From positions 3,163,563-3,227,562 of the forward strand of contig CP070707.1 in the NCBI GenBank assembly GCA_020350205.1: a stretch of DNA of 64,000 nucleotides. Direction: 5' to 3'. This document shows, piece after piece, positions 4,040 to 61,207 of the stretch. The stretch is from a bacterium (GTDB lineage Bacteria; Calditrichota; Calditrichia; RBG-13-44-9). The stretch's first letter is position 1. Each line of letters opens with the position of its first letter. Made by a program: the position numbers and the translations under genes. Below the pieces are notes generated by a model, which did not search any database, was not told the origin of the DNA, and saw only the letters and a program-made list of their open reading frames with translations.

Positions 4040-4331
4040 TCAATAATAATTATCAGCTAGTCTTAATTTTTGACCAGAGAGATAATTACTGGTAATTTTC
4101 TTCCTGGCAGAGAGTGAAAAATTGAATTGTTGGGAATATTTTTCGATTCTATCGATTACCTGTGTATACATTGAGATACGCAGTGAGACATATTTAATGT
4201 CCAGTCAGAGGAACAATCGGACTATTTTTGGGTTTTAATGAATAAACCGATATTGAGTTTGTAGTGGCTTTTTAGTGCAATTTTTATTAAAATCCAACAG
4301 GTTTAATAAAACGGGTGAGGTTGAAGGAGGA

Positions 4332-40758: not shown

Positions 40759-40790
40759 TTGATAAAACCTTATTTGGAAAGGAGATAAAT

Positions 40791-42137
40791 ATGGCATCAA
40801 CAAAAATTGTCCTCTGTATAGTATTTTTCTTGGTGGCATATTCCCACTCTCAGGATCTTCCAGCAGGTGAAGAGGCTTTGGGTACTAAAAAGTATGAACA
40901 GTATGAAAGTCCGACTGTTTGTAAGAGCTGCCATGATAATTTCTATGAGCAATGGAAACAGGCTATGATGTCTCAGGCTTATACTCATCACTGGGATGAG
41001 ATTGAATACTTTAAATTGGCCGTTCCCCATGCAGAGAAGGATGAAAAGGTTGCCGGAGTTAAAGCGGGATGTAACGGTTGTCATGCTCCCATGGCTTTCA
41101 TGGCCGGTATAGTTCCCCCACCTAAACCAGAAGAAAATACGCGTGCGAATGAATCAGTTGCTTGTGATATCTGCCATACGATAATAGGATTTAAAGGAGA
41201 TATTCCTCATAATTTTAATTACATCTCGAATCCAGGAAGAACGAAATACGGTCCGAAACCAGGACTCTCCTCTCCACATCATGATACAGAGTATAACGAA
41301 TTTATTACTCAGTCAGAATTCTGTGGAACCTGTCATAATGAAATGAGTCCTTATGGGGTGTGGGTCAAAGCGACGCAGCTTGAATGGAAAGAGGGACCAT
41401 ATGCCAAAGAGGGAGTCCCCTGCCATCAATGTCATATGCCCAAGGCCAAAGGAAAGAATGCCAAAATGGCTAAGGAAGATATCGTTGCACAACATTTGTT
41501 CCATGGCGCCCATGACCCTGGGAAATTGGCCAGTGCTATTGAATTGAGAATGAATCCTCTGGAAAGAGAAGTCCCCTATGATGGAGTAGTATCTCTCAAT
41601 GTTCAACTTTTCAGTGCTAAACCGGGACACAAGTTCCCGACGGGCTCGGTTGAGGATCGAATTGTCTGGTTACATGTAACCGCAACTGATGCCGAAGGAA
41701 AAAGCTACCACCTGCCGGTGGACAAAAAAAGTTTTGCAGGTGAGGAATATACCATAGCGTCGGATGTATTGGCCTACCAGGATATGGGGATCGCATTGAA
41801 TGATCCCAATTTTCCCGGTGTGCAGCGGGATGGGGTGCCTATTGGGGACCGTATCTTCCGGATGCCTTATTTCGACCCGCAGGGCCGGATGACAATTCAA
41901 CAATGGAATACTAAATCTTTTGGAGTGGATTATCGGATCGGTCCCCGTGAGACGAAAATCGAAACTTTTACCTGGCAGTTACCTGATGATATAGCCCTTG
42001 GAAAAGTACATTTCACCGCAGAATTGAATTATAGCAAACTTGTTAAGCCAGTGGCTGACTTTTTAAAGGTTCCTGCAGAAGAAAGTGAAACGATATTAAT
42101 AAACAAGACAAATACCTGGGTTGAAGTATACGACTAA
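40791..42137 (+). CDS. periplasmic pentaheme c-type cytochrome with ~225-aa non-heme C-terminal domain
   Basis: AAGGAG RBS before ATG 40791. Signal peptide MASTKIVLCIVFFLVAYSHSQ. Five CxxCH motifs (CKSCH, CNGCH, CDICH, CGTCH, CHQCH) lie in the first ~235 residues; the remainder has no heme motif. There is no CxxCK, so it is not a canonical NrfA. Confidence 0.8.
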   Translation: MASTKIVLCIVFFLVAYSHSQDLPAGEEALGTKKYEQYESPTVCKSCHDNFYEQWKQAMMSQAYTHHWDEIEYFKLAVPHAEKDEKVAGVKAGCNGCHAPMAFMAGIVPPPKPEENTRANESVACDICHTIIGFKGDIPHNFNYISNPGRTKYGPKPGLSSPHHDTEYNEFITQSEFCGTCHNEMSPYGVWVKATQLEWKEGPYAKEGVPCHQCHMPKAKGKNAKMAKEDIVAQHLFHGAHDPGKLASAIELRMNPLEREVPYDGVVSLNVQLFSAKPGHKFPTGSVEDRIVWLHVTATDAEGKSYHLPVDKKSFAGEEYTIASDVLAYQDMGIALNDPNFPGVQRDGVPIGDRIFRMPYFDPQGRMTIQQWNTKSFGVDYRIGPRETKIETFTWQLPDDIALGKVHFTAELNYSKLVKPVADFLKVPAEESETILINKTNTWVEVYD

Positions 42138-47212: not shown

Positions 47213-50200
47213 ATGCGCATTTATTTTATTCTTCTGCTTATTCTCACCTATTTTGCCCAGGCCCAGGAAGTTCTTCCGCCCAGTGATGGCGGTTTCACAA
47301 AATCTATGGGGCAACCTCAGATATACAAACCGTACATCGGTTTTTCGCTGGGACACAGTTATCCGGCGGTGGATGATAAATTAATTGCCCAGTTCAGGTT
47401 AGGCGTGTACCGGGATTTAATGAATCCCATGTACAGTGTACTGGGTATTTCCGCGGAAGGGTATATAGGGAGTCTTCGCACTAATGAAGATTTTGGATTC
47501 CGGGCGATGATTGAAATGCCTGCATTACGACTGGCAGGCGGACTTGATTACAATTATGAAGTTGAGCGTCTTGATTTTATCCTTCGGATAACAGCTGCGG
47601 TGAGGCGGGGAGGTATTTTTGGAAGGGGGACTGACCTGCGCCTTGAATGGTTACCGGCGCGAGGAAATACCTATAATCTGGGAATCGGAATACCTATTTT
47701 CCAACCTAATCGCGGAAAAACCCGCCCTAAAAGGGACTATGTCAGACTCACAGCCCCTAAACCACCACAAATTCCGAAGGTGCCTGGTATTCCGGCCTTG
47801 GAGGAAGCTCTCAATAATATCCGTGAAAGTGCCCGCTGGATTAATCGGCTTACCACACCCTATTATGATTATGCAGGGGCCGATCCCTTTGCCGCGATTG
47901 CTGACTCCATGAAAGCACTAAAAAAACATTTGAATTCCCGTAATATCAATTTCCCGAATGGCAGGAACAGTGAAGCAGAGGTTCGCTTTTTCCATCAGGA
48001 ACTGGAGCGCGCATTTTCAATGGCAATTTTGGGCGAGTCGCTGGTGATGGGAGAGTCGGTTAATGAGGGTAGAGAGGTTGCGGCACAGGCAAGAAATATT
48101 ATTCTGGAGAGAATATTATATCCCTATAACCGTTTACTTGGTCAGAAAAAAAATAGTGATTCCATATTGGAGTTTGCCAAAACAGCCCGCGGTAAGATGG
48201 CTCGCTGGATGACACAATCTGATGTAATTCCACCTGAAAGAATTGATGCAGTCCGTTATGTATTCCAGGAAATTATAGCAATTATCGAAGAAAATCGTGC
48301 CTATTCAGCCAAAATCTGGAAGGATTCCAGACTGGTATGGCTTCCCCTGCAATATGCGCTTCTCCCAGAGCAGCATGACAGTCAGCAAGAGCTGGATAAA
48401 ATTATTGAGGGTGCCACCGGTCAGCGATTTACTGAGGGGAATAAAATCTGGTATATCATTAATGAAGAGTTTCAATATGAGGTGGCTCGACAGATCCATG
48501 CTGCCCGTGACTATCATATATTATGGATTCATGATATTGATGCGTTTGATGCGGGTGGAGACCCCGACACACTTACTTTTCTGCAGATCAAGGATTCCTA
48601 TTTTCAGGCTATGATAGACCGAATCAGAGAATATGACGATACCGGCAAACTTCCCGTTTTTATGATTTTTCTGGATCAGTTTTTTTATCAGGCCAATAAA
48701 ACTCGAACCTGGATGAGGTTGTTAGAAAAACCCCTGACCTATAGTCTCAAGTTATCCGACAAATCCATGGAACAAGCGCTGACGGAAAAACTGACAGAAC
48801 TGCGCCGAGCAATCAATAGGTCGAAACTGTTGCAGGCGGAGATTCAGGAATACGGGGAAGAATGGCTGCATAACCTGATAAAGGTCCACGTGAATATTAC
48901 CAATCCGGCGGATATCTCATTCTGGAGCAGGGGTATCCTTCCCATACTTGGAACCCCCGATCTGATTTCCCGGGATCATCGCAAAATATCATTTTATGAC
49001 GTTTCGGAGGAGGATCCTTACCAGGGTGTCATGATGATTGGGGGTATGGGTATCGGAGAACATTATGCTGGCCCAACCTGGGATGACCGCGGTATACTCG
49101 TCCAGGGTCCTGCCGCACTTGATTTAAAATATGCGGCCAGGCAACTTCTGCTGGATCAAGGATTTGAAGAACAGGAAATTCCCTATCCGTTGCAAATAAG
49201 ATCTAAAGCGAGTGATTATGCAAGGGCGGTGCAGGATACAATTCGAGTCTGGAGTAAAAAAGGATTCACCCTGGCAAAAGTAAAGCAATTACATAATCAA
49301 ACCGGTTATCATCCCAAAATGGTCAGCGTTGCCAATGCAGTGATGTATTCATTAATGCCCCGGCGAACCTTTCAGATTATTCCGGATAGTTTATGGGATA
49401 GTGATTTCTGGTTGGCCATTCTTCTCGGTAATTCTTTACGGGGAGGCTGGATAAGCATTCAGGCACCGGCTCTGGAAAATGCTCCCAGTGCCGGTTTTCC
49501 TCAAATGTCCCGAACCCAGGAGTTGTTGGCCCGGCATGTAGTGATCCAGGAGATATTGTCAGAAGAGATTGAAGCAGCAGGGGGAATGTTCAGAGCAACA
49601 TTATACAACCCGGATGAGGATGTGGCCGATTTTGCCGGACAACTGAAAGAGTTTAAACATCGTTTCGAGAGTGACAAAAATTTACAGGAACTTTTTCCAT
49701 TTCATCCTTCCATATACCGTATGTTGGACAGTATGATCCAGGTATTAAGTGAACAGCAAATCGCTTATCTGTCCTCTGACGCCGTGGTGAGAAAACCAAA
49801 ACTCCACGCAAAAATTAATTTGTTCGCTTCTCTGGATGTGGTCCGTGATTTATTGATCATGCCTGAGTTTGCCTCGGTTTTCAAGTCTTATATACTGCAG
49901 CGAGTTGCTCAGGCCACAGAATATGGAGAAGTCGGAAATGTCAGGGAAAAAGCAGAGAAATTTTTACAGGTAGCCAGAGACTGGGTTATAAAATATCGGG
50001 ATAATACACCCCAGGAGGACCTGGAAAAGTTGGTATTTTATTTTAAAGTGGGAACCATGAATCAGAATTATCGCAGTAAAGTGTTCGATGGAGAAGCGGT
50101 GGTATTAATATCGGGGGTCTATAGTATTTATGGTTTAATGGATATGATTTTCCGAATCGGTTTAACCACACCGATAGAAGACCTGGAAACTTTAGAGAAA

Positions 50201-50263
50201 CATCTTCCCCAGTATGGGGGTACGAAAAGAGCTATTGGTCGCTGGATTCGAACCACACTCTAG
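47213..50263 (+). CDS. large secreted protein of unknown function (1016 aa)
   Basis: Signal peptide MRIYFILLLILTYFAQAQ, then a beta-rich first ~170 aa and a ~840-aa mixed alpha/beta remainder. I recognised no confident family. A weak PLD-like pair (HAKINLFASLD ... GTMNQNYRS) has non-canonical spacing. Confidence 0.6.
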   Translation: MRIYFILLLILTYFAQAQEVLPPSDGGFTKSMGQPQIYKPYIGFSLGHSYPAVDDKLIAQFRLGVYRDLMNPMYSVLGISAEGYIGSLRTNEDFGFRAMIEMPALRLAGGLDYNYEVERLDFILRITAAVRRGGIFGRGTDLRLEWLPARGNTYNLGIGIPIFQPNRGKTRPKRDYVRLTAPKPPQIPKVPGIPALEEALNNIRESARWINRLTTPYYDYAGADPFAAIADSMKALKKHLNSRNINFPNGRNSEAEVRFFHQELERAFSMAILGESLVMGESVNEGREVAAQARNIILERILYPYNRLLGQKKNSDSILEFAKTARGKMARWMTQSDVIPPERIDAVRYVFQEIIAIIEENRAYSAKIWKDSRLVWLPLQYALLPEQHDSQQELDKIIEGATGQRFTEGNKIWYIINEEFQYEVARQIHAARDYHILWIHDIDAFDAGGDPDTLTFLQIKDSYFQAMIDRIREYDDTGKLPVFMIFLDQFFYQANKTRTWMRLLEKPLTYSLKLSDKSMEQALTEKLTELRRAINRSKLLQAEIQEYGEEWLHNLIKVHVNITNPADISFWSRGILPILGTPDLISRDHRKISFYDVSEEDPYQGVMMIGGMGIGEHYAGPTWDDRGILVQGPAALDLKYAARQLLLDQGFEEQEIPYPLQIRSKASDYARAVQDTIRVWSKKGFTLAKVKQLHNQTGYHPKMVSVANAVMYSLMPRRTFQIIPDSLWDSDFWLAILLGNSLRGGWISIQAPALENAPSAGFPQMSRTQELLARHVVIQEILSEEIEAAGGMFRATLYNPDEDVADFAGQLKEFKHRFESDKNLQELFPFHPSIYRMLDSMIQVLSEQQIAYLSSDAVVRKPKLHAKINLFASLDVVRDLLIMPEFASVFKSYILQRVAQATEYGEVGNVREKAEKFLQVARDWVIKYRDNTPQEDLEKLVFYFKVGTMNQNYRSKVFDGEAVVLISGVYSIYGLMDMIFRIGLTTPIEDLETLEKHLPQYGGTKRAIGRWIRTTL

Positions 50264-50630
50264 AAAAACCTTTCACTAATAAATCAGTAATTCGACATGG
50301 ATATTAGACACGGGAGACAGGAGACCGGATAACAGGGTGATTGAAATGGTTTTTTTAAATGTTGAACCTGAGCTAATTTCAGTTTAATAAAATGGTATCT
50401 TTTTAGAATAATATCATCCTGAATAAGCCATATTGTCTTCTCCCGTCGGGGACACAGTCAGAGAACATGCTGGTAATAAGCAGACGACAGGACTTATTTC
50501 CTTCGGAACAATAATTGCCTGATAAATTTTTGGATCTGCGAAAATCTGTTTTTTTCTTCGTCAACTGTGTCCTATTTTACACTCCCAAAATTTTCATTTA
50601 ATTCGGTTTCACGAATACTTGAGGAATAAT

Positions 50631-51356
50631 GTGAATGATAATAAAGTTGCCTTAATCACCGGAGCCAGTCGCGGAATTGGTCGAGCCATCGCCCTGAAAT
50701 TTGCAAAAGAGGGAATAGCAGTGGCACTGACCGCCAGGGATGAATCGCAAATGAAAAACGTGTCCGATGAAATATCTGCGTTGGGAGGAATTCAGCCCCT
50801 GGAAATTCCGGCGGATCTGCGAGATATCTCTCAGATTCCTGCCATTTCAAAACGGGTAATCAATGAATGGGGCCGGATCGATATTCTGGTGAATAATGCA
50901 GGGCTGGGATATTTAAAACCTTTTCTGGAAATCAAGCCTGAAGAATTTCAGGAAATGCTGGATGTCAATCTGCGAGCCTTGTTTTTGCTGACTCAGGATG
51001 TTCTTCCCCATATGATTGAAAGGAGAACCGGAAATATTGTGAATATTGCTTCATTGGCAGGTAAAAATGGCTTTAAAACCGGAACCGGTTATGCAGCCAC
51101 CAAATGGGCCTTGAGAGGTTTTGCCCAGTGTCTGATGTTAGAGGTTCGCGAATATGATATAAGGGTAATCACAATTTTTCCGGGATCCGTTGAAACAGGA
51201 TTTGGCAGCGGTGGTGTGTCTCCGACCGGTACCCCCAGTCAGAATAAGATTCAGTCTGTCGACATCGCGGAGACCGTCTATCTGGCAGTAAATATGCCAG
51301 ACCGCACCATGCTGAGTGAGATTGATATGCGTCCCAGTAATCCGGCAAAAAAATAG
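50631..51356 (+). CDS. short-chain dehydrogenase/reductase (SDR) family oxidoreductase
   Basis: TGASRGIGRAIA cofactor motif, NNAG, and catalytic S...YAATKWA (YxxxK). The ORF is open from TTG 50619; GTG 50631 follows a GAGGA RBS. Confidence 0.8.
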   Translation: MNDNKVALITGASRGIGRAIALKFAKEGIAVALTARDESQMKNVSDEISALGGIQPLEIPADLRDISQIPAISKRVINEWGRIDILVNNAGLGYLKPFLEIKPEEFQEMLDVNLRALFLLTQDVLPHMIERRTGNIVNIASLAGKNGFKTGTGYAATKWALRGFAQCLMLEVREYDIRVITIFPGSVETGFGSGGVSPTGTPSQNKIQSVDIAETVYLAVNMPDRTMLSEIDMRPSNPAKK

Positions 51357-51478
51357 CTTTGGAGGCGGTCTGATTTTTTGATTTGCGGAAGGTTTAGTAA
51401 ATGTAAGTATGTACTTTGTTATTCATATGAGAAAAGCACCCGAGAACACCAGGAACGAAAAGAAATAAGGAGGCTAGC

Positions 51479-51934
51479 ATGTTAAAAGTAGGTGATAAAG
51501 CACCCGATTTTAAAGTACTCTCGGATCAGGGGAAAGAGGTAACTTTATCTCAGTTCCTTGGAAAAAAAGATGTGATCCTTTATTTTTATCCCAAAGATAA
51601 TACCAGCGGCTGTACCAAGGAAGCTTGTTCCTTTCGGGATAATATGCCCCGGTTTGACACCAAAAAGGCCGTGGTCTTGGGAGTAAGTCCCGATAGTGTT
51701 AAATCTCATCAGGGTTTTATCCAGAAGCAAAATCTCAATTTCAATCTGTTAAGCGATCCCGAACATAAAGTGGCGGAAGCCTATGGTGCCTGGGGTGAAA
51801 AAAGTATGTATGGGAAAAAATACATGGGTATTTTACGCTCTACTTTTATTATCGGCAAAGACGGAACCATTAAAAAAGTCTATGAAAAGGTAAAACCGGA
51901 GGGGCATGCCGAGGAAGTTTTACAGGCGCTGTAA
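51479..51934 (+). CDS. bcp: thiol peroxidase Bcp (peroxiredoxin Q type)
   Basis: LYFYPKDNTSGCTKEACSFRDN with peroxidatic and resolving Cys in GCT...C arrangement; 151 aa; AAGGAGG RBS. Confidence 0.85.
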   Translation: MLKVGDKAPDFKVLSDQGKEVTLSQFLGKKDVILYFYPKDNTSGCTKEACSFRDNMPRFDTKKAVVLGVSPDSVKSHQGFIQKQNLNFNLLSDPEHKVAEAYGAWGEKSMYGKKYMGILRSTFIIGKDGTIKKVYEKVKPEGHAEEVLQAL

Positions 51935-52088: not shown

Positions 52089-52826
52089 GTGACCAAGAAA
52101 TCAGACAGTGAGATGTTATCGATTGTCAGGGGGAAAATCAAAGAGGGGGCAAATTCCGAGCTCTCGCTTACCCGTCCCTTTGTATCCCTCTCCTTTGCTC
52201 AAAGCCTGGATGGGAGTATCTCTCTGCATCCTTCAGCCCCGGTCAGATTAAGCAATATTCATTCGCAAAGTTTTACGCACAGTTTACGTGCCATCCATAA
52301 TTCGATTCTCATCGGTATCGGTACCCTTCTTGCTGACGATCCCCAGCTTACTGTACGTCTGGTTTCGGGGGAAGATCCTATACCGGTAGTGGTGGATAGC
52401 CATCTTCGTTTTCCGACTCATTCCAAGCTGTTGCGGAAAAACACGATCAAACCATGGATCGCCTGCACGTCTGAAATAAGTGATGGGAAAGTTGACATTA
52501 TCCAGAAAAGTGGTGGAGAGATAATTCCCTTGCCGGCTTTATCCAATGGATGGGTCAATTTATCTTCGCTGATGCAACATCTTCATGATAGAGGTATTCG
52601 CTCGGTGATGGTTGAGGGGGGTGCCCGTATTATCACCAGTTTTTTACGGGAGAGACTGGCGGACCAGATTATTCTGACGATTGTCCCGATGATTCTGGGG
52701 GGATTTCGGGGAGTGCGGGAGCTTGAAAACATCGTCTCCCCCTTTATTACAAATCTTAAAAATATAAATTATGAACTGATCCAGGATAATCTGATTGTCC
52801 GGGGTGATCTTAATTATCAGGTATGA
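52089..52826 (+). CDS. stand-alone RibD C-terminal-type (DHFR-fold) pyrimidine reductase
   Basis: RPFVSLSFAQSLDGSIS matches the RibG/RibD reductase-domain N-terminal consensus (P.V.LK.A.SLDG.I); Rossmann-like remainder (MVEGGARI). No deaminase domain is present. It uses a GTG start. Confidence 0.6.
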   Translation: MTKKSDSEMLSIVRGKIKEGANSELSLTRPFVSLSFAQSLDGSISLHPSAPVRLSNIHSQSFTHSLRAIHNSILIGIGTLLADDPQLTVRLVSGEDPIPVVVDSHLRFPTHSKLLRKNTIKPWIACTSEISDGKVDIIQKSGGEIIPLPALSNGWVNLSSLMQHLHDRGIRSVMVEGGARIITSFLRERLADQIILTIVPMILGGFRGVRELENIVSPFITNLKNINYELIQDNLIVRGDLNYQV

Positions 52827-53875
52827 TGAAAACCCAGAAACTTTTTTTTGAAAAAAAGAAGACCATTGTAATTCACGAGGAAAGATTGGGATCTCCGGGT
52901 CCCGGGCAGGTCCTGGTTGAGGCGAAGTATTCAGCAATCAGTACCGGTTCCGAAATGGTATTGTTCCGCGGTGATTTCCCGGAGGGGATGACCACTGATA
53001 TGTCGCTCAATTCCCTGGCAGGAGTCATGAAATACCCGCTTTCTTATGGTTATGCACTGGTGGGGAAGGTTATTGAAATTGGAAAAAATACAGATCCGGA
53101 ATGGCTGGATAAAAGTGTCTTTTTGTTTCATCCGCATCAGTCATATATCGTGGTTCCTCAGACCGAACTTTTCCTCATCCCTCCGGATCTCAATGAGAAA
53201 AATGCGTTATTTCTTCCCAATATGGAAACTGCCATCGGATGTGTTATGGATGCGGCGCCGCTTCTGGGAGAAAATGTTGTCATTTTTGGACAGGGAGTCG
53301 TGGGTCTTCTGACAACATCCGTGCTGGCAAAATATCCCTTGAATCGGCTAGTTGCGGTAGATCCGTTGGAGAAAAGAAGGATAACCGCAAAAAATATCGG
53401 GGCGAATGCTGTATTCGATCCAGGAGATAAAAATTTTTTTGACGAAATTCACGATATGTTTCGTTCGAAGACACATCTAACAGATCAGCAAAGTGGTCCT
53501 GATCTCATATTTGAAATGTCCGGAAATCCAGAGGTTTTAAATACGGCTATTTCTATTGCCGGTTATCATAGCCGTATTATCGTTGGATCTTGGTATGGAA
53601 CGAAAACCGCCCATTTGAACCTGGGTGATAGATTTCATCGGAATCGGCTGCGGATTATCAGCAGCCAGGTGAGTACCATTCAGCCAGACTTACGGGGACG
53701 CTGGAATAAGGAAAGGCGGATGGAATTGGTATGGTCATGGTTGAAGCAGGTCACTCCTTCGAGATTGATTACCCATTACATTCCATTTTCCGAGGCACAA
53801 TCTGCTTATGCCTTGTTGGATGAACAGCCGGAGCAAGCCTTACAGGTTGTTTTGACATATGAAGGGAGAACCTAG
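52823..53875 (+). CDS. medium-chain dehydrogenase/reductase (MDR) family oxidoreductase, non-classical Zn site
   Basis: GroES-like N-domain, then GYALVGKV in place of the GHE..G motif, and Rossmann VVIFGQGVVGLL. It overlaps the upstream gene by 4 bp and abuts the next. Confidence 0.65.
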   Translation: MMKTQKLFFEKKKTIVIHEERLGSPGPGQVLVEAKYSAISTGSEMVLFRGDFPEGMTTDMSLNSLAGVMKYPLSYGYALVGKVIEIGKNTDPEWLDKSVFLFHPHQSYIVVPQTELFLIPPDLNEKNALFLPNMETAIGCVMDAAPLLGENVVIFGQGVVGLLTTSVLAKYPLNRLVAVDPLEKRRITAKNIGANAVFDPGDKNFFDEIHDMFRSKTHLTDQQSGPDLIFEMSGNPEVLNTAISIAGYHSRIIVGSWYGTKTAHLNLGDRFHRNRLRIISSQVSTIQPDLRGRWNKERRMELVWSWLKQVTPSRLITHYIPFSEAQSAYALLDEQPEQALQVVLTYEGRT

Positions 53876-54252
53876 TGTATACAGTGACTGTAATCCGGGA
53901 TTTTATGGCACAACATTATTTAATTGGTGGTGACTGGGGAGATGAAAACAACTGGCATACCCATCATTATGAGGTTGAGGTACAGCTGCAGGGTAAACAG
54001 CTGGATCGGCATGGGTATCTGGTCGATATTGTTGAAATAGAAGACGCTCTGAGCCAGGTAATCTGGTATTTCAAAGACAAAACTCTGAATGAATTACCGG
54101 AATTTAATCAGCTAAATCCCAGCATCGAACATTTTTCCCGAATCATAGGTGAAATGTTTGCCCGGAAAATTTCCACACAAAATTTGACTGCCCTGGTTCT
54201 CAAGTTATGGGAACATGAAGCCGCCTGGGCATCCTATACATTGAAATTTTAG
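53875..54252 (+). CDS. 6-pyruvoyl-tetrahydropterin synthase/QueD-fold protein lacking the catalytic Cys
   Basis: 125 aa. FMAQHYL and NNWHTHHYEVEV reproduce the QueD/PTPS zinc-His layout (H...HxH), but the position of the catalytic Cys (C-x3-HGH) is occupied by Glu (DENNWHTHH). Confidence 0.6.
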   Translation: MYTVTVIRDFMAQHYLIGGDWGDENNWHTHHYEVEVQLQGKQLDRHGYLVDIVEIEDALSQVIWYFKDKTLNELPEFNQLNPSIEHFSRIIGEMFARKISTQNLTALVLKLWEHEAAWASYTLKF

Positions 54253-54354
54253 ATAGGTATTTTCCCGGCTATTTATGTCTGAGCAAATGATGATGTTTCC
54301 TTAGATATATGAATGTTTATGCATGTCTGTTTATAATTTTAAGATATAATCAAA

Positions 54355-55383
54355 ATGAAATTCCAATTCTTCCTGCCAGATATTTTAGATTTTCCCACCG
54401 GCGGTAATATATTTAACCAGCATTTCATGCAACAACTGGCCCGATCTCACGAAGTAGATCAGATCATTGTATCACCAAAAAAAAAGGTTAATATACCAGA
54501 CACAGTAGAACTGGAAACCGATACCTGTTGGCTGATCGATAGCCTGTTAACAGGTCATCAGGAATTAATTAAAAGTATAGCGGACATCAATATTTCGTAT
54601 GGGAAATGGCTGTTGGTCCATTATCTGAATATGCTGGATCCCGCCCATGCGTCTGGTCCTGATACCGATGAAGAGAGGAAGAATTTAGCTCACTTCGACG
54701 GCTATATTGTAACCAGCCGGTATTCGAAAAATCAATTGATGAATAACGGAATTCCCGCAAGAAATATTGTTGTCATTCAACCGGGAATCAATGAAAGATT
54801 TTTGGTAAGACGCAAGCCCCGCATAGTCGTACAGTTACTCACGGTCTCCAGCATTTTCCCCGGGAAAGGTTTGTTGGAATTTCTGAAGGTTCTGGAGAAT
54901 CTGTCCGATTTACCCTGGCAATGGATTCTGATAGGTGCGGACGAGCTTGATCCTGAATTTACAGCGGAGTTTTTACGACACATCGGCAGCAGCCGTTTGA
55001 AAAATCGTATCCAGATTCTGGGACCGCTTTCTCAGGTTAGCCTTTTTCAGATCTATAAGCAGAGTGATATATTTGTGCTGAATTCGCGATTTGAGTCCTG
55101 CAGTATGGTTACCATGGAAGCTATGAGTTTTGGATTGGCCATTCTGGCGAACGAGGTGGGAGGATTGCCGGAATTGGTGCAATCTCAGGAGAACGGTTAT
55201 CTGGTTCCGCCGGGAGATAGAGATCAGTTTAGCGAAGTTTTAAGGAAGTTGATCTCCAAACCTGATTTGCGAATCTCACTGGGAGAAAAAGCATTCCATA
55301 GCAGCCGTTCTTTTCCGAGTTGGCCGCAATGTGCGAAAAAATTTTTAAAATTTTTAGAATCTCACCCAACACCGCAGACATAA
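54355..55383 (+). CDS. GT4-family glycosyltransferase
   Basis: N-terminal DFPTGGNIFNQHFMQQLARSHEV and the C-terminal GT-B donor domain with E-x7-E (ESCSMVTMEAMSFGLAILANEVGGLPELV). Confidence 0.75.
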   Translation: MKFQFFLPDILDFPTGGNIFNQHFMQQLARSHEVDQIIVSPKKKVNIPDTVELETDTCWLIDSLLTGHQELIKSIADINISYGKWLLVHYLNMLDPAHASGPDTDEERKNLAHFDGYIVTSRYSKNQLMNNGIPARNIVVIQPGINERFLVRRKPRIVVQLLTVSSIFPGKGLLEFLKVLENLSDLPWQWILIGADELDPEFTAEFLRHIGSSRLKNRIQILGPLSQVSLFQIYKQSDIFVLNSRFESCSMVTMEAMSFGLAILANEVGGLPELVQSQENGYLVPPGDRDQFSEVLRKLISKPDLRISLGEKAFHSSRSFPSWPQCAKKFLKFLESHPTPQT

Positions 55384-55499
55384 CGGACTTATAATTAAAA
55401 TATCCGATGGTATGTGCAAATTCAAGCATCTTAAATTTTTGGTGTTGTTTGTATCATGAAATCTTTAATATAAAAATAAATTAAATTATATTTTTTGAA

Positions 55500-56210
55500 A
55501 TGATTCATACTGAAAAAACTGTCCGCAGCTGGTTCGATCAACTTTACAAGCAAAAGCAGCTCAAAAGTATGCGCCAAATTGATGCGTATACTGTTTATCT
55601 GGATCACCTGGAGGTGGAACCAGAGAAAAAATTCCTTGACATTGGATGCGGACCGGGTTTGCTTCTGAAAACTGCCCGGGCGAGAGGGCTGCAAACCTAT
55701 GGTATTGATCTTTCCCCGCAAGCGATTTCCCTGGCTTCTCAAACCTCCCCTGATTCTCAACTACAGGTAGGGAATGTTACCCAAATCTCCTACCCGGATA
55801 AAAGCTTTGATTATATCACCTGTATTGGTGTTTTAGAGCATTTTCTGGAAATGGACAAATCCATCAGTGAATTGAAACGTATTGCGAAAGATGATGCGCG
55901 TTATTGCATAATGGTTCCTAATTCCCGTACACTATACTGGAAAATTTCAGAAAGATTCAGCCGTACCCATCGTGAGAGCAATGAAAATGCCCGAAGTTTG
56001 CAAGAATGGCAAGATTTATTTTCCCATTATGAGTTTAAGATCCGGGTGGTTCATCGAGATGACTGGCAGATCCGAAAATTTTTTATTATCTTGGGTTTGG
56101 GCACGTTTCCGCAACTCACGGCATTTGTTAAAAAGATACTCTGGAAAATCATCCCTTTAACTTTTGCCCATCAGTTTATCTTTATTTTGGAAAAGAAAAA
56201 CCATGTCTGA
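55500..56210 (+). CDS. class I SAM-dependent methyltransferase
   Basis: Motif I FLDIGCGPGLL, motif post-I YGIDLS, and the conserved acidic/hydrophobic motif II (ITCIGVLEH). Confidence 0.75.
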   Translation: MIHTEKTVRSWFDQLYKQKQLKSMRQIDAYTVYLDHLEVEPEKKFLDIGCGPGLLLKTARARGLQTYGIDLSPQAISLASQTSPDSQLQVGNVTQISYPDKSFDYITCIGVLEHFLEMDKSISELKRIAKDDARYCIMVPNSRTLYWKISERFSRTHRESNENARSLQEWQDLFSHYEFKIRVVHRDDWQIRKFFIILGLGTFPQLTAFVKKILWKIIPLTFAHQFIFILEKKNHV

Positions 56211-57069
56211 GCGTAAATCATCATCGGATACCCGACTGTCAGAACTGTACGAAAATCTCTCCCGCTATTCATACAATATAAACCGGTTAAAAGGTAAATC
56301 CCGTTTTACCATGCACAAACCGTTACAGATTCCTGCTGAAGTCCAACACCTTTATGTGGACAAGGATAAATCAAATTATTTGGATGACCTGGTGTTAATC
56401 GAGGCAGGTTTACCGGAAAATCCTCGGGTGCTGGATGCCGGATGCGGATTTGGGGGATCCATATTCCGCTGGAATCATCTCAGACCCGGTATATACCATG
56501 GTATGACCCTGAGCAACTATCAGAAGAGTATTGCCTTGAGAGAGGCGCAGCGTCGCGGGGTGAGCGCAAATTGTATGTTTTATGTACAGAACTATTTGGA
56601 GCCGATCAACATCAAATATCATGGGATAATAGCCATTGAATCTCTTATTCACAGTTCGGATCTTAATGCTACTTTGTCAAATTTTACTCAGGCATTGCTT
56701 CTGAAAGGTAAACTGGCCATCGTCGATGACATGTCTCGGGATGAACAAGTACGTCATGAAGAAGACTACCAATTGTTGAAGGATTACTGGTATTTAACAG
56801 ATATCCCTTCCGAAATGGACTATGTTGAGCTTCTGGGAAAAAACAATTTGAAAATTATCTCTAATCTGGATTTAACCCCACAGATTCGTTTCAATTCGGA
56901 TCGATTACTGAGTCAGAAAATAAGAAGAACGAAATTTCTTTTGCGCCTCATGCCCATCAAATCTTTGAGGATCTTTCTGAGAACACATCTGGGGGGCTTT
57001 GCTTTACAAAAATTATATAATAAAGGAATGATGAAATATCAGCTTATAGTTGCACAGAAGGAATCTTAA
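56203..57069 (+). CDS. class I SAM-dependent methyltransferase
   Basis: ATG 56203 overlaps the upstream stop (ATGTCTGA). Motif I VLDAGCGFGGS, HGMTLS, and IIAIESLIH. The ORF is open from 56164. Confidence 0.7.
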   Translation: MSERKSSSDTRLSELYENLSRYSYNINRLKGKSRFTMHKPLQIPAEVQHLYVDKDKSNYLDDLVLIEAGLPENPRVLDAGCGFGGSIFRWNHLRPGIYHGMTLSNYQKSIALREAQRRGVSANCMFYVQNYLEPINIKYHGIIAIESLIHSSDLNATLSNFTQALLLKGKLAIVDDMSRDEQVRHEEDYQLLKDYWYLTDIPSEMDYVELLGKNNLKIISNLDLTPQIRFNSDRLLSQKIRRTKFLLRLMPIKSLRIFLRTHLGGFALQKLYNKGMMKYQLIVAQKES

Positions 57070-57821
57070 ATTTTGTCTGCTCTCAAAATAATGCCGCCCT
57101 GTAAAAAATGTAAACCTATCAGTTTTCCTATTAAATCCAACCTGCCTAGAAAACTCCCCCAGTATTTGGACATGTCCCCCCGCGGAATAAAGCTCCAATA
57201 TTCAGTCTGAATCCTATTGAATCCGGATTCGGTAAACAGCGCCTTTAATTCAGATGCAGGCAGAAACAGATCGGTTGATAGATGGCGCGTGGAATATCCA
57301 AATAAAGGGGCGATCAGGCGATACCATATATATTTACCATTGGGGGTCATGAGTATTATTCTTCCTCCCGGTTTGAGAACCCGATAAAATTGCCTGACGA
57401 CTTTGGTCTTTTCCAGCATGTGCTCGAAGGCACCAATACACATCACCAGATCTACACAACTGTCTTCTATGGTTTTTAATTCCTGCGCATAATCTACCTG
57501 AAATTGCAGCTTGTCGGCATGAGGTGATTCATTCCGTGCTTTCTGGGCGGATTCAATCATGTTCCGGGAAAAATCCACCCCGATGCCGTATTTAATAACA
57601 GGGGCGATATAGTACAGGTGATGACCATTTCCACATCCCACATCCAGAACCACATCCTGAGTATTCAGGTGACCCAACTTATGCAGCTGTTCCATTCGAT
57701 ATTGCAACAGTCGGCCTGAATCTCCGTGGGCTTCCCGATATTCCGGGGCTGTTTCCTCAAAAAACTGCCGAATATCGCTTTCAGAATTACATTGACGGGT
57801 CTGTAGTTTTTTTGATGTCAT
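57066..57821 (-). CDS. class I SAM-dependent methyltransferase
   Basis: Motif I VLDVGCGNGHH, YGIGVDFS and MCIGAFEHM. The ORF is open to 57935, but starting at the internal Met (MTSKKLQ, 57821) avoids overlap with the upstream gene. Confidence 0.7.
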   Translation of the reverse strand: MTSKKLQTRQCNSESDIRQFFEETAPEYREAHGDSGRLLQYRMEQLHKLGHLNTQDVVLDVGCGNGHHLYYIAPVIKYGIGVDFSRNMIESAQKARNESPHADKLQFQVDYAQELKTIEDSCVDLVMCIGAFEHMLEKTKVVRQFYRVLKPGGRIILMTPNGKYIWYRLIAPLFGYSTRHLSTDLFLPASELKALFTESGFNRIQTEYWSFIPRGDMSKYWGSFLGRLDLIGKLIGLHFLQGGIILRADKI

Positions 57822-57825
57822 ATTA

Positions 57826-59643
57826 CTATTTAATATTTGAGATTGAAATTCCGCTTTGTAGATACCGGGGCAGGCTTTTTTCGGAAGTATAATGCTGACT
57901 GAGTAATCGAACCAATAAGGAGTAGATACCTTCATGCCGCATTGTACTCGGTTGCTCCGGGTTCAGCAATAACCCTGTGGAAAATCCATACTCCTGTAAT
58001 GAAAATAGAAATTCCTGGTCCTGAGAGATGACATGAAGGGGGGTAGCAAAACTGGGATTTTCCTCTGTTATAATGGGAGGTTGATGATCTCCCAGTATGA
58101 CAATGATACTGTTAGGATTGATTTCATTCAGAATGAAATCCCGGATCATTTTAATTTCATAAATCATATGCTCCAGATATTCATTAATGCCGGTGCCGGT
58201 AGAAATGTTTAATTTAAAAGTTTCCTGAAGTTTTTCAGAAGTGTGCTGATATTTTTCCTGTAGTTGTGCACGGTTTATGGCTTGGATATCACGCCAGTTT
58301 TCCGCATAGGGGGGGAGATCTAACCAGGGAGAATGTGAACTAACCGTGAGAAAAAACAGAAAGCAGGGTTTCCCTGCTTTTTGCAGAAATTTTTCATTGG
58401 CATAATTCAGGCTGTATTGGTCTGGAATATTCCTGAAACCAAAAGCCGGGCCGTCAAAATCCAAATCCTCAAAATTGATCAGTGTTTGATATTGATAAAA
58501 TTTTTCATAACTGTTCATGGAAAATCCCGGTCTTACCCGGTTCAGCGGTTGTAATGCAAAAGTATGGTATCCTTGTATATTAAAGAAATGAACCATGTGA
58601 GGATAATTGCGTGTACGGTTGATCAAAAATGAATATACAGCTTCGTCTTTAATATGGATGCCGGTGATAAAGGATCCCATTGTAAGCCAGGAACGACCAC
58701 CAAAAATGGGGGCTTCGCTGAAAGTGCTGTATGCGTTCCACCTTTCTCCGGATAGCGTATCTTCTACACTTTTCATCCAGTGAGTGTATACTTCTCGGCT
58801 CTGGGGATGATCCAGCAGAATTCTACCATAGGATTCCACCAAAAAGATATAGATATCCGGCCGTTGTTCAAGCCGGATGTTGCGGTAATGATAATAGGTT
58901 GAATCTGCTGGAGAATCTGTTATACTATGCAGAAAACTGCGCAGTTTAAATGATTTTTCAACAGTGCTCACGATTTTTGGACTTATCCAGTGGATGGTGG
59001 TACGATAATCACTAAAATTGAACCAGAGGTTATTGATTATGATAATGAATCCTATTGAAATTCCAATTATCATGAATTTTCGGGAATGCATAAACCGCCT
59101 GAATCCGTCGCGAATGCCATGAAACAGAAAGGGAATGACTGAGAATACAATCCCTAAAATCAACACCACCAGCATCATTTCGAAGAGCTTTTTGGTTAAG
59201 GAAATATCAATGATCAGGTAAAATGCCCCTTTGAGTAACATGAGATCGTTGTATAAAATTGGCGGTTCGCCGAATAGCAGAATCATGAGATTGTGATAAA
59301 TCTGAAAAGTGAGTAGAAAAATATAACTGCCGGTTATAAATCGATAGATCCAGGCGGACCAGTTAAGTTTAAGACTAACGAACAAAAGAACCAGTATGAG
59401 ATAGTATTCCGCTATCAGCCTGAAGAAATCCTGATTCTCGCGGCGCAGGAAAAAAAGCAAGGTATCGTACCATCCCCGCGGTGCATCCAGCGGGGGAAGG
59501 GGAATCCAGGAAACCTGGGCCGGAGAGAATAGCGTCTGGGGCAGAAAAAGGAGGATGTTGAGTAAAATCAGGGAGAACCAGAAGAAGACCGGATTTTCCT
59601 TCAGCTGGGATAGAAATCGTTTCAGTTTTTGGAGTGAATCCAT
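57826..59643 (-). CDS. membrane-anchored alkaline-phosphatase-superfamily transferase (LtaS/MdoB-like sulfatase-fold)
   Basis: About 5 N-terminal TM helices, then an extracytoplasmic ~400-aa domain with TVSSHSPW and ILGDHQPP motifs reminiscent of LTA-synthase/phosphoglycerol-transferase enzymes. Confidence 0.5.
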   Translation of the reverse strand: MDSLQKLKRFLSQLKENPVFFWFSLILLNILLFLPQTLFSPAQVSWIPLPPLDAPRGWYDTLLFFLRRENQDFFRLIAEYYLILVLLFVSLKLNWSAWIYRFITGSYIFLLTFQIYHNLMILLFGEPPILYNDLMLLKGAFYLIIDISLTKKLFEMMLVVLILGIVFSVIPFLFHGIRDGFRRFMHSRKFMIIGISIGFIIIINNLWFNFSDYRTTIHWISPKIVSTVEKSFKLRSFLHSITDSPADSTYYHYRNIRLEQRPDIYIFLVESYGRILLDHPQSREVYTHWMKSVEDTLSGERWNAYSTFSEAPIFGGRSWLTMGSFITGIHIKDEAVYSFLINRTRNYPHMVHFFNIQGYHTFALQPLNRVRPGFSMNSYEKFYQYQTLINFEDLDFDGPAFGFRNIPDQYSLNYANEKFLQKAGKPCFLFFLTVSSHSPWLDLPPYAENWRDIQAINRAQLQEKYQHTSEKLQETFKLNISTGTGINEYLEHMIYEIKMIRDFILNEINPNSIIVILGDHQPPIITEENPSFATPLHVISQDQEFLFSLQEYGFSTGLLLNPEQPSTMRHEGIYSLLVRLLSQHYTSEKSLPRYLQSGISISNIK

Positions 59644-60326
59644 ACCAGGTCTCTTCCGAATGAATAAAGTAACAAAATTGTGGCAATCACCACTGCGGGT
59701 TTATATAACCAGGGTACAGGAAGAAAAGCAGCCAATAGAACGCCGATGACATAAACAAAGATATAACGGCCCCATTTGAATCGTCTTTCTTTCTTGTCCC
59801 GTTCTCCCAGAATGAATAAATAAACAATGAAAAGGTAGCGAAGCAAACCTAAAATAACTGTCCAGGGCCATAATAAGGATTTCAAGATGGCTATCATGAC
59901 CCAGATGTGAAGGAAATAAGCGTCGGTTTCTTTATCAAAATATTCTCCGAACATTGAAGATTCATTTCGATCTCGGGCCAGCATCCCGTCCAGGCCGTCT
60001 GCAATCAGAATAATAAGACCGAAACCGGCGATAAAAATGTTTGGAATTTTCAGGTAAAAAAGGGCAGTGACTGAAATTAGGAAAAGACGACCGAAAGTGA
60101 GTAAGTTGCCCAGACCAAAACGGGTGGTGGGAGTCCATTGATTTTTCTCTCTGAGTACAAGGAATAAAAAAGAGAAATTTCCAATTAACACCAGCAAAAG
60201 CAACGAATGGGTGATAAAACTGATTAACGTTGCGATTAAAATGAGTACCGCATGGAGATTGGTCCAATTGCGAAATCGGTTCCCCATGTGTTGATCCTGT
60301 GATGAAAAGCTATGTTTATTCATCAT
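59622..60326 (-). CDS. CDP-alcohol phosphatidyltransferase family protein
   Basis: DGLDGMLARDRNESSMFGEYFDKETDAY fits D-G-x2-A-R-x8-G-x3-D-x3-D exactly; polytopic membrane protein; 234 aa. Confidence 0.8.
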   Translation of the reverse strand: MMNKHSFSSQDQHMGNRFRNWTNLHAVLILIATLISFITHSLLLLVLIGNFSFLFLVLREKNQWTPTTRFGLGNLLTFGRLFLISVTALFYLKIPNIFIAGFGLIILIADGLDGMLARDRNESSMFGEYFDKETDAYFLHIWVMIAILKSLLWPWTVILGLLRYLFIVYLFILGERDKKERRFKWGRYIFVYVIGVLLAAFLPVPWLYKPAVVIATILLLYSFGRDLVWIHSKN

Positions 60327-60367
60327 TTTTAACTTGAATTAATTTAACTGATTCATGATGGGAATAA

Positions 60368-61207
60368 TTAAAATCCGAGTGTCATAAAGGTAATACCCAC
60401 CAGAATCCCAAAGATTACATTGAAGCTTTTGATGACCAAGGAGTTTTTTACGGAATAGGATAAAAGCGGAATCAGTCCATGCCCGTTTTGGATGATAGAG
60501 GAAGTCAACAGTACACTGAACGGGATTAGTCCATCGCTGAACATGAAAACAAAAATAAACTGCGGTGCTACATCCGGAATCAAACCCACCAGAACAGCCA
60601 GTAAAAGTACCAACTGAGGGTGGGCGCTGACGAAACCCCGCAGATCAAAATAGTGTTCGCCCAGGTGAACAAACCAGATGGCCAGGAAGGTCCAGATGAA
60701 GATACGCCATATATGTTTTTTTAAAATATGAGACCAGAGGTGTTCTCTGAGATAATGTTTGAAGGAAGTTTCATCCCGGTGGTATACGATATCTTCGCAT
60801 TCACATTTATCATCTATTTTAAATAAGCGGATAATAAAATCGGTGATATAAGCGAAAAAAATTCCCAATCCAACCAGGAGCAGGTGCAGAATCAGGGCAG
60901 TTTTTGGAAAGAGGGCAAACATTAAGAGTGCTGCTTCACCGGTGGTGGCGATCATGCCGCCTACAATCGCTCCCATGGTCAGATAACCGTGCATGTACAG
61001 TGAGACATTCATATAACTTCCCATACATCCCGGGGTAAGACCCAAAAGCCCGGCCACTGTATATTGTTTCATTTTACTATCGGCAATCCAGGAGGGTAAA
61101 CGTCCACGGGTTCGGACATCCAACCAGTCAATAATCACCATCATAACAAAAACCAGGCCGGTAATCTGCAGGGCATGCAGGATAATGTCGGGTTCAAATA
61201 GACTCAT
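60368..61207 (-). CDS. polytopic membrane protein of unknown function
   Basis: 279 aa with about 8 predicted TM helices and a central Cys/His-rich cytoplasmic loop (DDKCECEDIVYHRDETSFKHYLREH). It is co-directional with the lipid-type genes upstream. Confidence 0.5.
   Translation of the reverse strand: MSLFEPDIILHALQITGLVFVMMVIIDWLDVRTRGRLPSWIADSKMKQYTVAGLLGLTPGCMGSYMNVSLYMHGYLTMGAIVGGMIATTGEAALLMFALFPKTALILHLLLVGLGIFFAYITDFIIRLFKIDDKCECEDIVYHRDETSFKHYLREHLWSHILKKHIWRIFIWTFLAIWFVHLGEHYFDLRGFVSAHPQLVLLLAVLVGLIPDVAPQFIFVFMFSDGLIPFSVLLTSSIIQNGHGLIPLLSYSVKNSLVIKSFNVIFGILVGITFMTLGF

Follow-up and report, generated by a model that had tools for sequence, protein, structure and literature searches.

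Background

Enzymes of the LtaS/EptA type (LtaS and LtaP, EptA, MCR-1 and EptC, OpgB, GacH and BcsG) carry an outward-facing catalytic domain behind an N-terminal multi-helix membrane domain and move a phospho-alcohol from a phospholipid onto an acceptor in the envelope; to our knowledge the characterized LtaS-, EptA- and OpgB-type enzymes all draw on bulk housekeeping phospholipids. Pterin glycosides are made in cyanobacteria and Chlorobi by a PTPS-family enzyme with a group-1 glycosyltransferase directly after it; in the known pathways GTP cyclohydrolase I acts first and the products are soluble and cytoplasmic. Here, we describe a locus in a 64,000-nucleotide stretch of a Calditrichota genome (GenBank contig CP070707.1, positions 3,163,563–3,227,562; hereafter the window) in which the enzyme families are known and the combination appears to be new: an LtaS/EptA-like enzyme is paired with a dedicated donor-lipid synthase, a CDP-alcohol phosphatidyltransferase (the CDP-OH enzyme), and coupled to a GTP-derived branch. 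The LtaS/EptA-like protein, a 605-residue membrane-anchored member of the alkaline phosphatase superfamily (57826–59643, minus strand), is given the working name Sulf. We propose, with a probability of about 0.45, that Sulf, the CDP-OH enzyme and an adjoining methyltransferase (together, the trio) are the membrane half of a roughly ten-gene system that joins a GTP-derived, pterin-like glycoside to diacylglycerol phosphate and then hands it to the envelope. An initial annotation of the window had envisaged a set of genes devoted to making an unusual polar lipid or a lipid-linked product, an idea that is well supported in its general form.

The membrane trio

The CDP-OH enzyme (59622–60326, minus strand) belongs to PF01066 (64 bits against a cut-off of 22) and has several hydrophobic segments. 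The superfamily motif, D-x2-D-G-x2-A-R-x7-12-G-x3-D-x3-D in a polytopic membrane protein, is present in exact form as DGLDGMLARDRNESSMFGEYFDKETD and occurs nowhere else in the window, in agreement with the perfect motif reported initially. All of the curated NCBIfam equivalogs are failed: PgsA (TIGR00560, 28.3 against 109.1 bits; NF008090, 20.2 against 304 bits), PssA (20.5 against 107 bits), PIP synthase (18.7 against 170 bits), archaetidylinositol-phosphate synthase (27.2 against 180 bits) and ClsA (19.0 against 240 bits). Searched in full with HMMER, 1.84 billion representative proteins yielded only 1,624 relatives at E ≤ 1e-3; the subfamily is therefore compact and distinct, and does not extend to the bulk PgsA, PssA or Pcs enzymes. 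No solved relative was found in a sequence search of the PDB, the best match being CHPT1 (E = 0.67). The enzyme is thus not a housekeeping PgsA and its neighbours, as described below, are both conserved with it and fused to it, the reverse on both counts of what the initial annotation had named as telling against its proposal.

Sulf matches the generic family PF00884 (35.5 bits) in its C-terminal two thirds, behind the multi-helix membrane domain, and belongs to no NCBIfam family. A sequence search of the PDB gave no match at E ≤ 1, even with the family profile, and an exact-match look-up of the protein returned no record. The AlphaFold2 model (pLDDT 81.6) has six N-terminal helices, one of them weakly hydrophobic, followed by a catalytic domain with a fold that, among members of the alkaline phosphatase superfamily, most resembles LtaS/EptA. 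LtaS is the most similar structure, and full-length MCR-1 and EptA align over 369–383 residues; the fold thus supports the earlier description of Sulf as an LtaS-like transferase. The N-terminal domain comprises about 230 residues and contains many invariant polar positions, as in EptA and LtaS. Residues E270, S318, D408, H437, D519 and H520 are invariant in all 34 of the 34 family members and follow the LtaS/EptA layout of a metal-binding Glu, a hydroxyl nucleophile about 45 residues further on and a C-terminal Asp-His pair. Judging by spacing, E270, S318, H437, D519 and H520 presumably correspond to E255, T300, H416, D475 and H476 of LtaS. The context of the nucleophile is FGGRSWLTMGS, and the formylglycine-sulfatase signature CxPxR (C/S-x-P-x-R) is absent from Sulf. 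A family-wide calculation of charge bias (K+R against D+E) suggests an N-in topology in which five transmembrane helices and one interfacial helix precede a catalytic domain outside the cytoplasm. The fold, together with the pairing and fusion with the CDP-OH enzyme, suggests that Sulf may carry a phospho-alcohol from a phospholipid donor to an acceptor. In Cytophagales (Fulvivirgaceae and Agaribacillus), the CDP-OH gene comes after a tandem pair of Sulf paralogues (L008, 8097–11761; L083, 8150–11700).

The third member of the trio is a UbiE-like class I S-adenosylmethionine (SAM) methyltransferase (57066–57821, minus strand; Methyltransf_11, 74.6 bits), which follows Sulf in Calditrichota, Fidelibacterota, Rhodothermales and Zixibacteria and is coupled to the membrane pair by gene fusions. 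These were sought among CDP-OH relatives from representative protein clusters. Single proteins of 811–864 residues in Rhodothermales and others join the CDP-OH enzyme to Sulf in the gene order of the window; in one of them (P0042), residues 18–228 match the CDP-OH enzyme of the window (37% identity) and residues 289–828 match Sulf (34%). Seven clusters join the CDP-OH enzyme to a methyltransferase domain that is 35–48% identical over its full length to the minus-strand methyltransferase, against 21–28% in partial alignments with the plus-strand methyltransferase at 55500–56210. One cluster (P0385) is a fusion of a GT4 glycosyltransferase with the CDP-OH enzyme, and several fuse the latter to LPG_synthase_TM, an MprF-type flippase-like domain. 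Each partner gene is therefore fused to the CDP-OH enzyme somewhere and, on the evidence of these fusions, the CDP-OH enzyme, Sulf and the minus-strand methyltransferase are a functional unit.

The convergent operon

The trio faces a plus-strand operon (52089–57069). The initial annotation had noted its methyltransferases, which do belong to the unit, and had left the other four genes, for a RibD-type reductase, a medium-chain (MDR) dehydrogenase, a PTPS-like protein and a GT4 glycosyltransferase, unconnected with the membrane enzymes.

The first gene (52089–52826; PF01872, 139 bits) encodes a RibD_C-type pyrimidine reductase with no deaminase domain. It narrowly misses TIGR00227 (147.3 against 150.15 bits) and does not reach the archaeal reductase equivalog (117.9 against 186.45 bits), and its best solved relatives are genuine riboflavin-pathway reductases (PDB codes 7lrh, 103 bits, and 2azn, 95 bits). 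No deaminase domain was found anywhere in the clusters. The RibD_C proteins of Bacteroidota and Fidelibacterota (L008, 20101–21066; L005, 14880–15803) have 307–321 residues and bear an N-terminal extension of about 115 residues with no NCBIfam match, possibly a degenerate deaminase or a new domain. The second gene (52823–53875; ADH_zinc_N, 46 bits) encodes the polyol-type MDR dehydrogenase, which weakly matches BchC, threonine dehydrogenase and galactitol-1-phosphate dehydrogenase and always lies between RibD_C and the PTPS-like gene in related loci.

The third product (53875–54252; PF01242, 90.6 bits) is a T-fold enzyme of the PTPS/QueD family. In an alignment with Escherichia coli QueD, it keeps the zinc-binding histidine triad (H14, H28 and H30) and the pterin-anchoring Glu (E113), with a Glu at the position of the catalytic Cys and Asp-Lys at that of the Asp-His pair. 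It does not reach the QueD equivalog (TIGR03367, 48.2 against 89.25 bits), and the nearest solved structure is the orphan SCO6650 (PDB code 3d7j). Among the PTPS-like proteins of the window, L008, L014, L027, L032 and other loci, two subtypes can be distinguished, both with Glu in place of the catalytic Cys and both in the same cluster context: one with the zinc triad (H…HxH) in the window, other Calditrichota and Chloroflexota, and an SCO6650-like one ('IAHS..FGPAQ.LHGAT') with no third His in Bacteroidota, Fidelibacterota, Proteobacteria and Streptomyces.

The GT4 glycosyltransferase (54355–55383; Glycos_transf_1, 94.7 bits) comes after the PTPS-like gene in nearly all loci and is common to the soluble and membrane modules; in Rhodothermales, Paracoccus and Dinoroseobacter it is found with only the membrane module. 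Two class I SAM methyltransferases complete the operon. The first (55500–56210, 236 residues; Methyltransf_11, 73.9 bits), a candidate for an accessory decoration step, is conserved in Calditrichota and Fidelibacterota loci and absent in Chloroflexota; the second (56164–57069) has weak class I matches and distant orthologues in Cytophagales loci.

In other lineages the clusters also encode GTP cyclohydrolase II, the copies of which keep the zinc cysteines and the canonical Tyr. This Tyr is said, after work by Spoonamore and others in 2006, to mark the canonical diaminopyrimidine-forming enzyme. In locus L094 a single 451-residue protein (4098–5453) is a fusion of GTP cyclohydrolase II with RibD_C; a large PAS/GAF sensor kinase gene is inserted between the MDR dehydrogenase and PTPS-like genes of the same locus.

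Conservation of the linkage

At least 481 species genomes of Calditrichota, Fidelibacterota, Bacteroidota, Chloroflexota and Alpha-, Gamma- and 'Delta'-proteobacteria contain relatives, and Sulf and CDP-OH homologues share contigs. Linkage was counted within 10 kb in 80 Sulf loci from species-representative genomes; neighbour families were found by iterated profile searches, plain tblastn having missed the divergent Chloroflexota CDP-OH genes. A CDP-OH gene of the window's subfamily lies beside Sulf at 38 of the 80 loci (35 of 56 outside the Caldilineales, many of these 56 being truncated by contig ends). RibD_C, MDR dehydrogenase or PTPS-like genes are found near Sulf at 22 of 80, from Calditrichota, Fidelibacterota, Bacteroidota, Chloroflexota and one deltaproteobacterial metagenome-assembled genome (MAG), with differing gene order and orientation; RibD_C is present at 19 of 80.

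In the close relatives, in Fidelibacterota (41% identity in Sulf) and in Caldithrix abyssi, the trio converges on methyltransferase, GT4, PTPS-like, MDR dehydrogenase and RibD_C genes; the convergent set of C. abyssi has one methyltransferase and the Fidelibacterota locus adds GTP cyclohydrolase II. Cytophagales, Saprospiraceae and Bacteroidales show an altered arrangement, yet have GTP cyclohydrolase II, RibD_C, MDR dehydrogenase, PTPS-like and GT4 genes within 10 kb, and the order of these five is nearly invariant overall. In Anaerolineae and Chloroflexia, one co-directional operon includes the CDP-OH enzyme and LPG_synthase_TM as a fusion or a pair, and at two loci (L050 and L082) Sulf is placed between the MDR dehydrogenase and PTPS-like genes. 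The complete set forms one block in annotated replicons of Peteryoungia desertarenae, Agrobacterium tumefaciens Yub001 (pAt) and Thiodictyon syntrophicum; the block of P. desertarenae reads sulfatase, flippase-like protein, methyltransferase, CDP-OH enzyme, RibA, dehydrogenase, PTPS-like protein, GT4, methyltransferase, RibD and cytochrome b. Paracoccus yeei and Dinoroseobacter shibae have the CDP-OH enzyme, Sulf, GT4 and in some cases the flippase-like protein; the biosynthetic genes are replaced there by an NMT1/THI5-type ABC importer, which suggests that a head-group precursor can be imported. NCBIfam gives no substrate for the proteobacterial NMT1-type binding protein. Reciprocal look-ups from PTPS-like genes were mixed, with PTPS-like, GT4, LPG_synthase_TM and CDP-OH genes together in L095 and no membrane genes within 10 kb in L094 and L096. 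The copies on Streptomyces plasmids are lone genes and uninformative, and an Indioceanicola record carries no annotation. In L096, a gene for a PlsC-type acyltransferase (6068–7018) lies directly upstream of GTP cyclohydrolase II, RibD_C, MDR dehydrogenase, PTPS-like, GT4 and methyltransferase genes, with no CDP-OH/Sulf pair there.

Recurring as it does across phyla and as gene fusions, this arrangement goes far beyond chance, and the functional unit is one of about ten genes, the trio plus the whole convergent operon. An absence of any functional unit, the adjacency being synteny inherited among related genomes, would account for the closest relatives, which share even unrelated flanking genes (M3 peptidase, AhpC and SDR), but is refuted by the fusion proteins and by the rearranged linkage of the same gene set in distant phyla and on proteobacterial plasmids; we give it almost no credence.

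A less extreme alternative confines the lipid pathway to the minus strand: the trio would by itself make an N-methylated head group (resembling phosphatidylethanolamine or phosphatidylcholine), a glycerophospho head group or a polymer resembling lipoteichoic acid, and the plus-strand RibD, PTPS-like and GT4 genes would belong to an unrelated pterin-glycoside pathway. The fusions do place a methyltransferase at the membrane enzyme, Sulf is structurally closest to LtaS and, as set out under the proposed pathway, each module can be found alone. However, linkage of the two modules recurs, with the genes rearranged, in at least six phyla or classes; examples are the insertion of Sulf into the soluble set and the single divergent or convergent blocks of Rhizobiaceae and Thiodictyon. 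None of the PmtA, Pcs, PgsA and PssA equivalogs is matched at anything near its cut-off, and methyltransferases are missing from the Chloroflexota and some proteobacterial versions, so that methylation is not essential. We therefore regard this alternative as improbable; nothing supports the N-methylated amine or glycerophosphate head group offered as an example in the initial annotation, and the conserved partners point instead to a GTP-derived moiety of the pyrimidine or pterin type.

Proposed pathway

From the observed genes, families, cross-phylum linkage, fusions, fold and invariant catalytic residues we infer a seven-step pathway in which all of the substrates, the order of steps 4–7 and the acceptor are conjectural. 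The near-invariant order of the soluble genes suggests their sequence of action. In step 1, GTP cyclohydrolase II would open GTP to a 2,5-diaminopyrimidinone ribosyl phosphate; the enzyme is cluster-encoded in other lineages and would presumably be supplied by a housekeeping copy in the source bacterium. In step 2, the RibD-type reductase would turn the ribosyl into a ribityl chain, the 2-amino group being kept because no deaminase is present. In step 3, the MDR dehydrogenase may reoxidize the side chain, making ring closure to a dihydropterin possible, and the PTPS-like T-fold enzyme would remodel the product to a pterin-like compound or a diaminopyrimidine polyol. The early steps from GTP are suggested by the residues of GTP cyclohydrolase II, its fusion to RibD_C and the likeness of RibD_C to true reductases. 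The GT4 enzyme would then glycosylate the pterin-like compound, with methyltransferases decorating it (step 4), and the CDP-OH enzyme would join the resulting alcohol to diacylglycerol phosphate via CDP-diacylglycerol (step 5). Transfer of the lipid to the outer leaflet (step 6) could be carried out by the MprF-type flippase-like protein elsewhere and perhaps by an ArsP_2 permease in the window. Finally, Sulf, predicted to face outward and to use a Ser nucleophile, would pass the phospho-head group on to the envelope, where a periplasmic glucan or a glycolipid is a possible acceptor (step 7).

The main rival retains this pathway and makes Sulf a hydrolase (phosphatase): the CDP-OH enzyme would form a phosphatidyl-(polyol phosphate), the terminal phosphate would be removed and the new phospholipid would stay in the bilayer. 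A route through GTP cyclohydrolase II and RibD gives a polyol 5'-phosphate, the two best, albeit weak, equivalogs of the CDP-OH enzyme (PgsA and archaetidylinositol-phosphate synthase) use phosphorylated polyols, consecutive enzymes are often fused, and a Ser nucleophile and metal site suit hydrolysis equally. The closest folds, however, are all transferases that take phospho-alcohols from lipids, the N-terminal domain of Sulf is EptA/LtaS-like in its size and invariant polar residues, and both the flippase-like partners and the predicted outward-facing catalytic domain would be superfluous for a simple phosphatase. PgpB is also outward-facing, which tempers the last argument. Hydrolysis seems to us unlikely, although it is the strongest of the alternatives.

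Several other observations weigh against transfer of a pterin-like head group by the complete system. Its steps are genomic predictions, and the topology of Sulf comes from a charge-bias calculation. At two Chloroflexota loci (L094 and L096) the soluble module stands without membrane genes within 10 kb (GT4 being present in L096 only), and the Rhodothermales and Zixibacteria have CDP-OH, Sulf and methyltransferase genes (with GT4 in Rhodothermales) and no RibD or PTPS-like genes within that distance; the modules may therefore be separable and the alcohol used by the CDP-OH enzyme could be something else. At 24 Caldilineales loci (L030–L087) the Sulf relatives are 27–29% identical and have almost no CDP-OH, PTPS-like or GT4 genes within 10 kb, so that these relatives have a paralogous function or else belong to a system with scattered genes. 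The PTPS-like subtype of Bacteroidota, Fidelibacterota and Proteobacteria lacks the third zinc ligand, as does SCO6650, which is not known to catalyse the PTPS reaction. No cytidylyltransferase, riboswitch or regulator hints at the ligand.

Possible physiological role

D. shibae encodes homologues of the CDP-OH enzyme (35% identity), Sulf (23%, with all signature motifs kept) and GT4 (27% over the full length) in one operon with a flippase-like gene. The genes Dshi_4166–4170 (membrane protein, sulfatase, transferase and cytochrome b561) are up-regulated in the light and form part of the singlet-oxygen response, and loss of the 72 kb chromid abolishes light-dependent survival under starvation (PMC4373377). 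This transcriptome is the sole experimental hint for the system; the homology is distant, so that the product need not be identical.

Genes of the cytochrome b561 type recur in or beside the proteobacterial clusters (L097, 13055–13582; L100, 12011–12544; L101, 11528–12085; L092, 6916–7473; L090, 7035–7580); the copy in D. shibae scores 51 bits with NF008566, and no counterpart is visible in the window. These cytochromes and the AhpC gene flanking the window operon fit, and do not establish, a redox or antioxidant role. The genes mdoG and mdoH in D. shibae (L092, 3783–6832) and mdoH in Methylosinus trichosporium OB3b (L099, 6079–7881) adjoin the membrane or the soluble module. This adjacency is a weak indication that periplasmic glucans are possibly the acceptor.

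Taken further, the system might define a new class of envelope lipid or substituent, with a redox-active, GTP-derived pterin-like glycoside as its head group, made without GTP cyclohydrolase I and giving photo-oxidative protection on periplasmic glucans or the outer envelope. In Proteobacteria, the co-clustered cytochrome b561 would then possibly re-reduce the head group. We consider this extended proposal unlikely at present.

Gene boundaries and flanking genes

An ORF check found the four minus-strand open reading frames (ORFs) of the initial annotation at 57066–57935, 57826–59643, 59622–60326 and 60368–61207, and Pfam confirmed their families; family calls throughout are Pfam and NCBIfam profile scores against curated cut-offs. 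The closest named relatives of the window are Calditrichia. Of the overlapping boundaries described initially, the 22 nt overlap of the CDP-OH and Sulf genes is real and kept in relatives, whereas the 110 nt overlap of the methyltransferase and Sulf genes is an artefact of longest-ORF calling, because the methyltransferase almost certainly starts at Met39 (ATG at 57821) and has 251 residues. This codon sits 4 nt past the TAG stop of Sulf, relatives have 250–256 residues, and alignments with fused homologues begin at residue 1 of the shorter form. The CDP-OH enzyme probably starts at Met14 (60287; 221 residues), as in the depositor's annotation of a 100%-identical cluster, and the methyltransferase at 56164–57069 probably at Met14 (56203; 288 residues, with orthologues of 288–289). 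The stops of the two convergent methyltransferase genes overlap by 4 nt, as they also do in L001.

The fourth ORF, for the Cys/His-loop protein with eight transmembrane segments that the initial annotation had included in its cluster, encodes an ArsP_2-family permease (60368–61207, minus strand; PF11449, 113 bits against 32.5), with a match to NF037962 ('arsenic efflux protein'; 129.3 bits against 100) over the whole profile. Only xECxx[IVL][IV]YHxDE of its CECEDIVYH loop is kept in orthologues, the first Cys of CEC not being conserved. The gene adjoins the trio at four of six Calditrichota species loci and at none of the 74 others; it is also present in metagenome contigs L001–L004 and absent from the loci of C. 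abyssi (L093) and Fidelibacterota (L005). The permease is a Calditrichota-specific neighbour outside the conserved and fused core, and possibly a translocator.

An arsenic or organoarsenical detoxification pair, with an ArsM-like methyltransferase, this efflux permease and unrelated lipid genes, would be in keeping with the NCBIfam match and with weak matches of the minus-strand methyltransferase to ArsM models (about 41–56 bits). The ArsM cut-offs, however, are 240–575 bits, and lineages with no ArsP_2 also keep this methyltransferase together with the CDP-OH enzyme and have fusions of the two. Among the neighbours scanned against Pfam (39.6–63.5 kb of the window), no arsR, arsC, arsB or arsM was found. 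An ArsM-type role for this methyltransferase is effectively refuted, and the detoxification pair as a whole is extremely improbable.

Directly upstream of RibD_C, genes for an SDR (adh_short, 200 bits) and an AhpC/TSA peroxiredoxin occupy 50619–51934; their synteny with the operon is limited to the closest relatives (L001 and L003). Further upstream are an ODP/metallo-β-lactamase-fold protein followed by a multihaem cytochrome (Cytochrome_C554/MtrC-like; 39583–42137) and a 1,016-residue ORF with no Pfam match at E ≤ 1e-5 (47213–50263). No relevant RNA came up when the window and six loci were scanned for riboswitches and against Rfam, and promoter and terminator scans gave no excess over shuffled sequence. 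A PYLIS_3 match in a Chloroflexia MAG (L063, 7164–7262, minus strand; 44.1 bits against a gathering score of 38) is probably spurious.

Comparison with known systems

No paper on this system came up when its components were searched for in combination, a result that is not conclusive as most of the subscription-journal literature lay outside the coverage; a link to Chlamydomonas SAK1 proved to be a coincidental term match. If the proposal is correct, the system would be a widespread case of a transferase with its own donor-lipid synthase, often fused to it, and would bring a new component to the envelopes of phyla that dominate in the environment. We know of no lipid with a head group that derives from the entry reactions of the riboflavin/pterin branch. 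The proposal would also explain the singlet-oxygen-induced operon of a model marine phototroph and provide a role for the orphan SCO6650 family; SCO6650 itself is a PTPS paralogue with a structure from 2008 and no function assigned to it. Copies in A. tumefaciens, Peteryoungia, Dinoroseobacter and C. abyssi make the system directly testable.

Compared with the LtaS/EptA group, Sulf has a similar N-terminal multi-helix membrane domain and a catalytic domain that is predicted to face outward, at only 8–17% sequence identity, and has a Ser nucleophile instead of Thr; the nucleophile of BcsG is also Ser. The members of this group draw on housekeeping phosphatidylglycerol or phosphatidylethanolamine, whereas Sulf has a CDP-alcohol phosphatidyltransferase of its own as partner or fusion domain. 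MprF follows the same logic of making a special lipid and then flipping it, and the CDP-OH enzyme of Chloroflexota and Proteobacteria is fused or adjacent to an LPG_synthase_TM domain. The MprF synthase, however, is aminoacyl-tRNA-dependent, whereas the system described here uses a CDP-alcohol transferase, and the window has no LPG_synthase_TM gene. The combination of a full-motif CDP-OH_P_transf enzyme with a cytoplasmic GT4 is likewise seen in PgsA/Pgp and in PIP synthase with PimA (GT4) of the phosphatidylinositol mannoside pathway, but the enzyme of the window scores 4–10 times below every equivalog cut-off and represents a separate subfamily.

Among the soluble enzymes, the PTPS-like protein of the window keeps all three zinc histidines, in contrast to SCO6650, which lacks this set. 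The SCO6650 neighbourhood includes a GTP cyclohydrolase II paralogue, SCO6655, which has Met instead of the canonical Tyr and makes a formamidopyrimidine, whereas the cluster-linked GTP cyclohydrolase II copies keep the Tyr; the literature found on SCO6655 is limited to a mention in an expression table. In D. shibae, Dshi_4166–4170 have an NMT1-type ABC importer and cytochrome b561 in place of the RibD and PTPS-like genes and adjoin mdoGH. The PTPS–GT4 succession seen here resembles that of cyanobacterial and Chlorobi pterin glycoside biosynthesis, with GTP cyclohydrolase II, a RibD-type reductase and membrane phosphotransferases in place of a GTP cyclohydrolase I start and soluble products.

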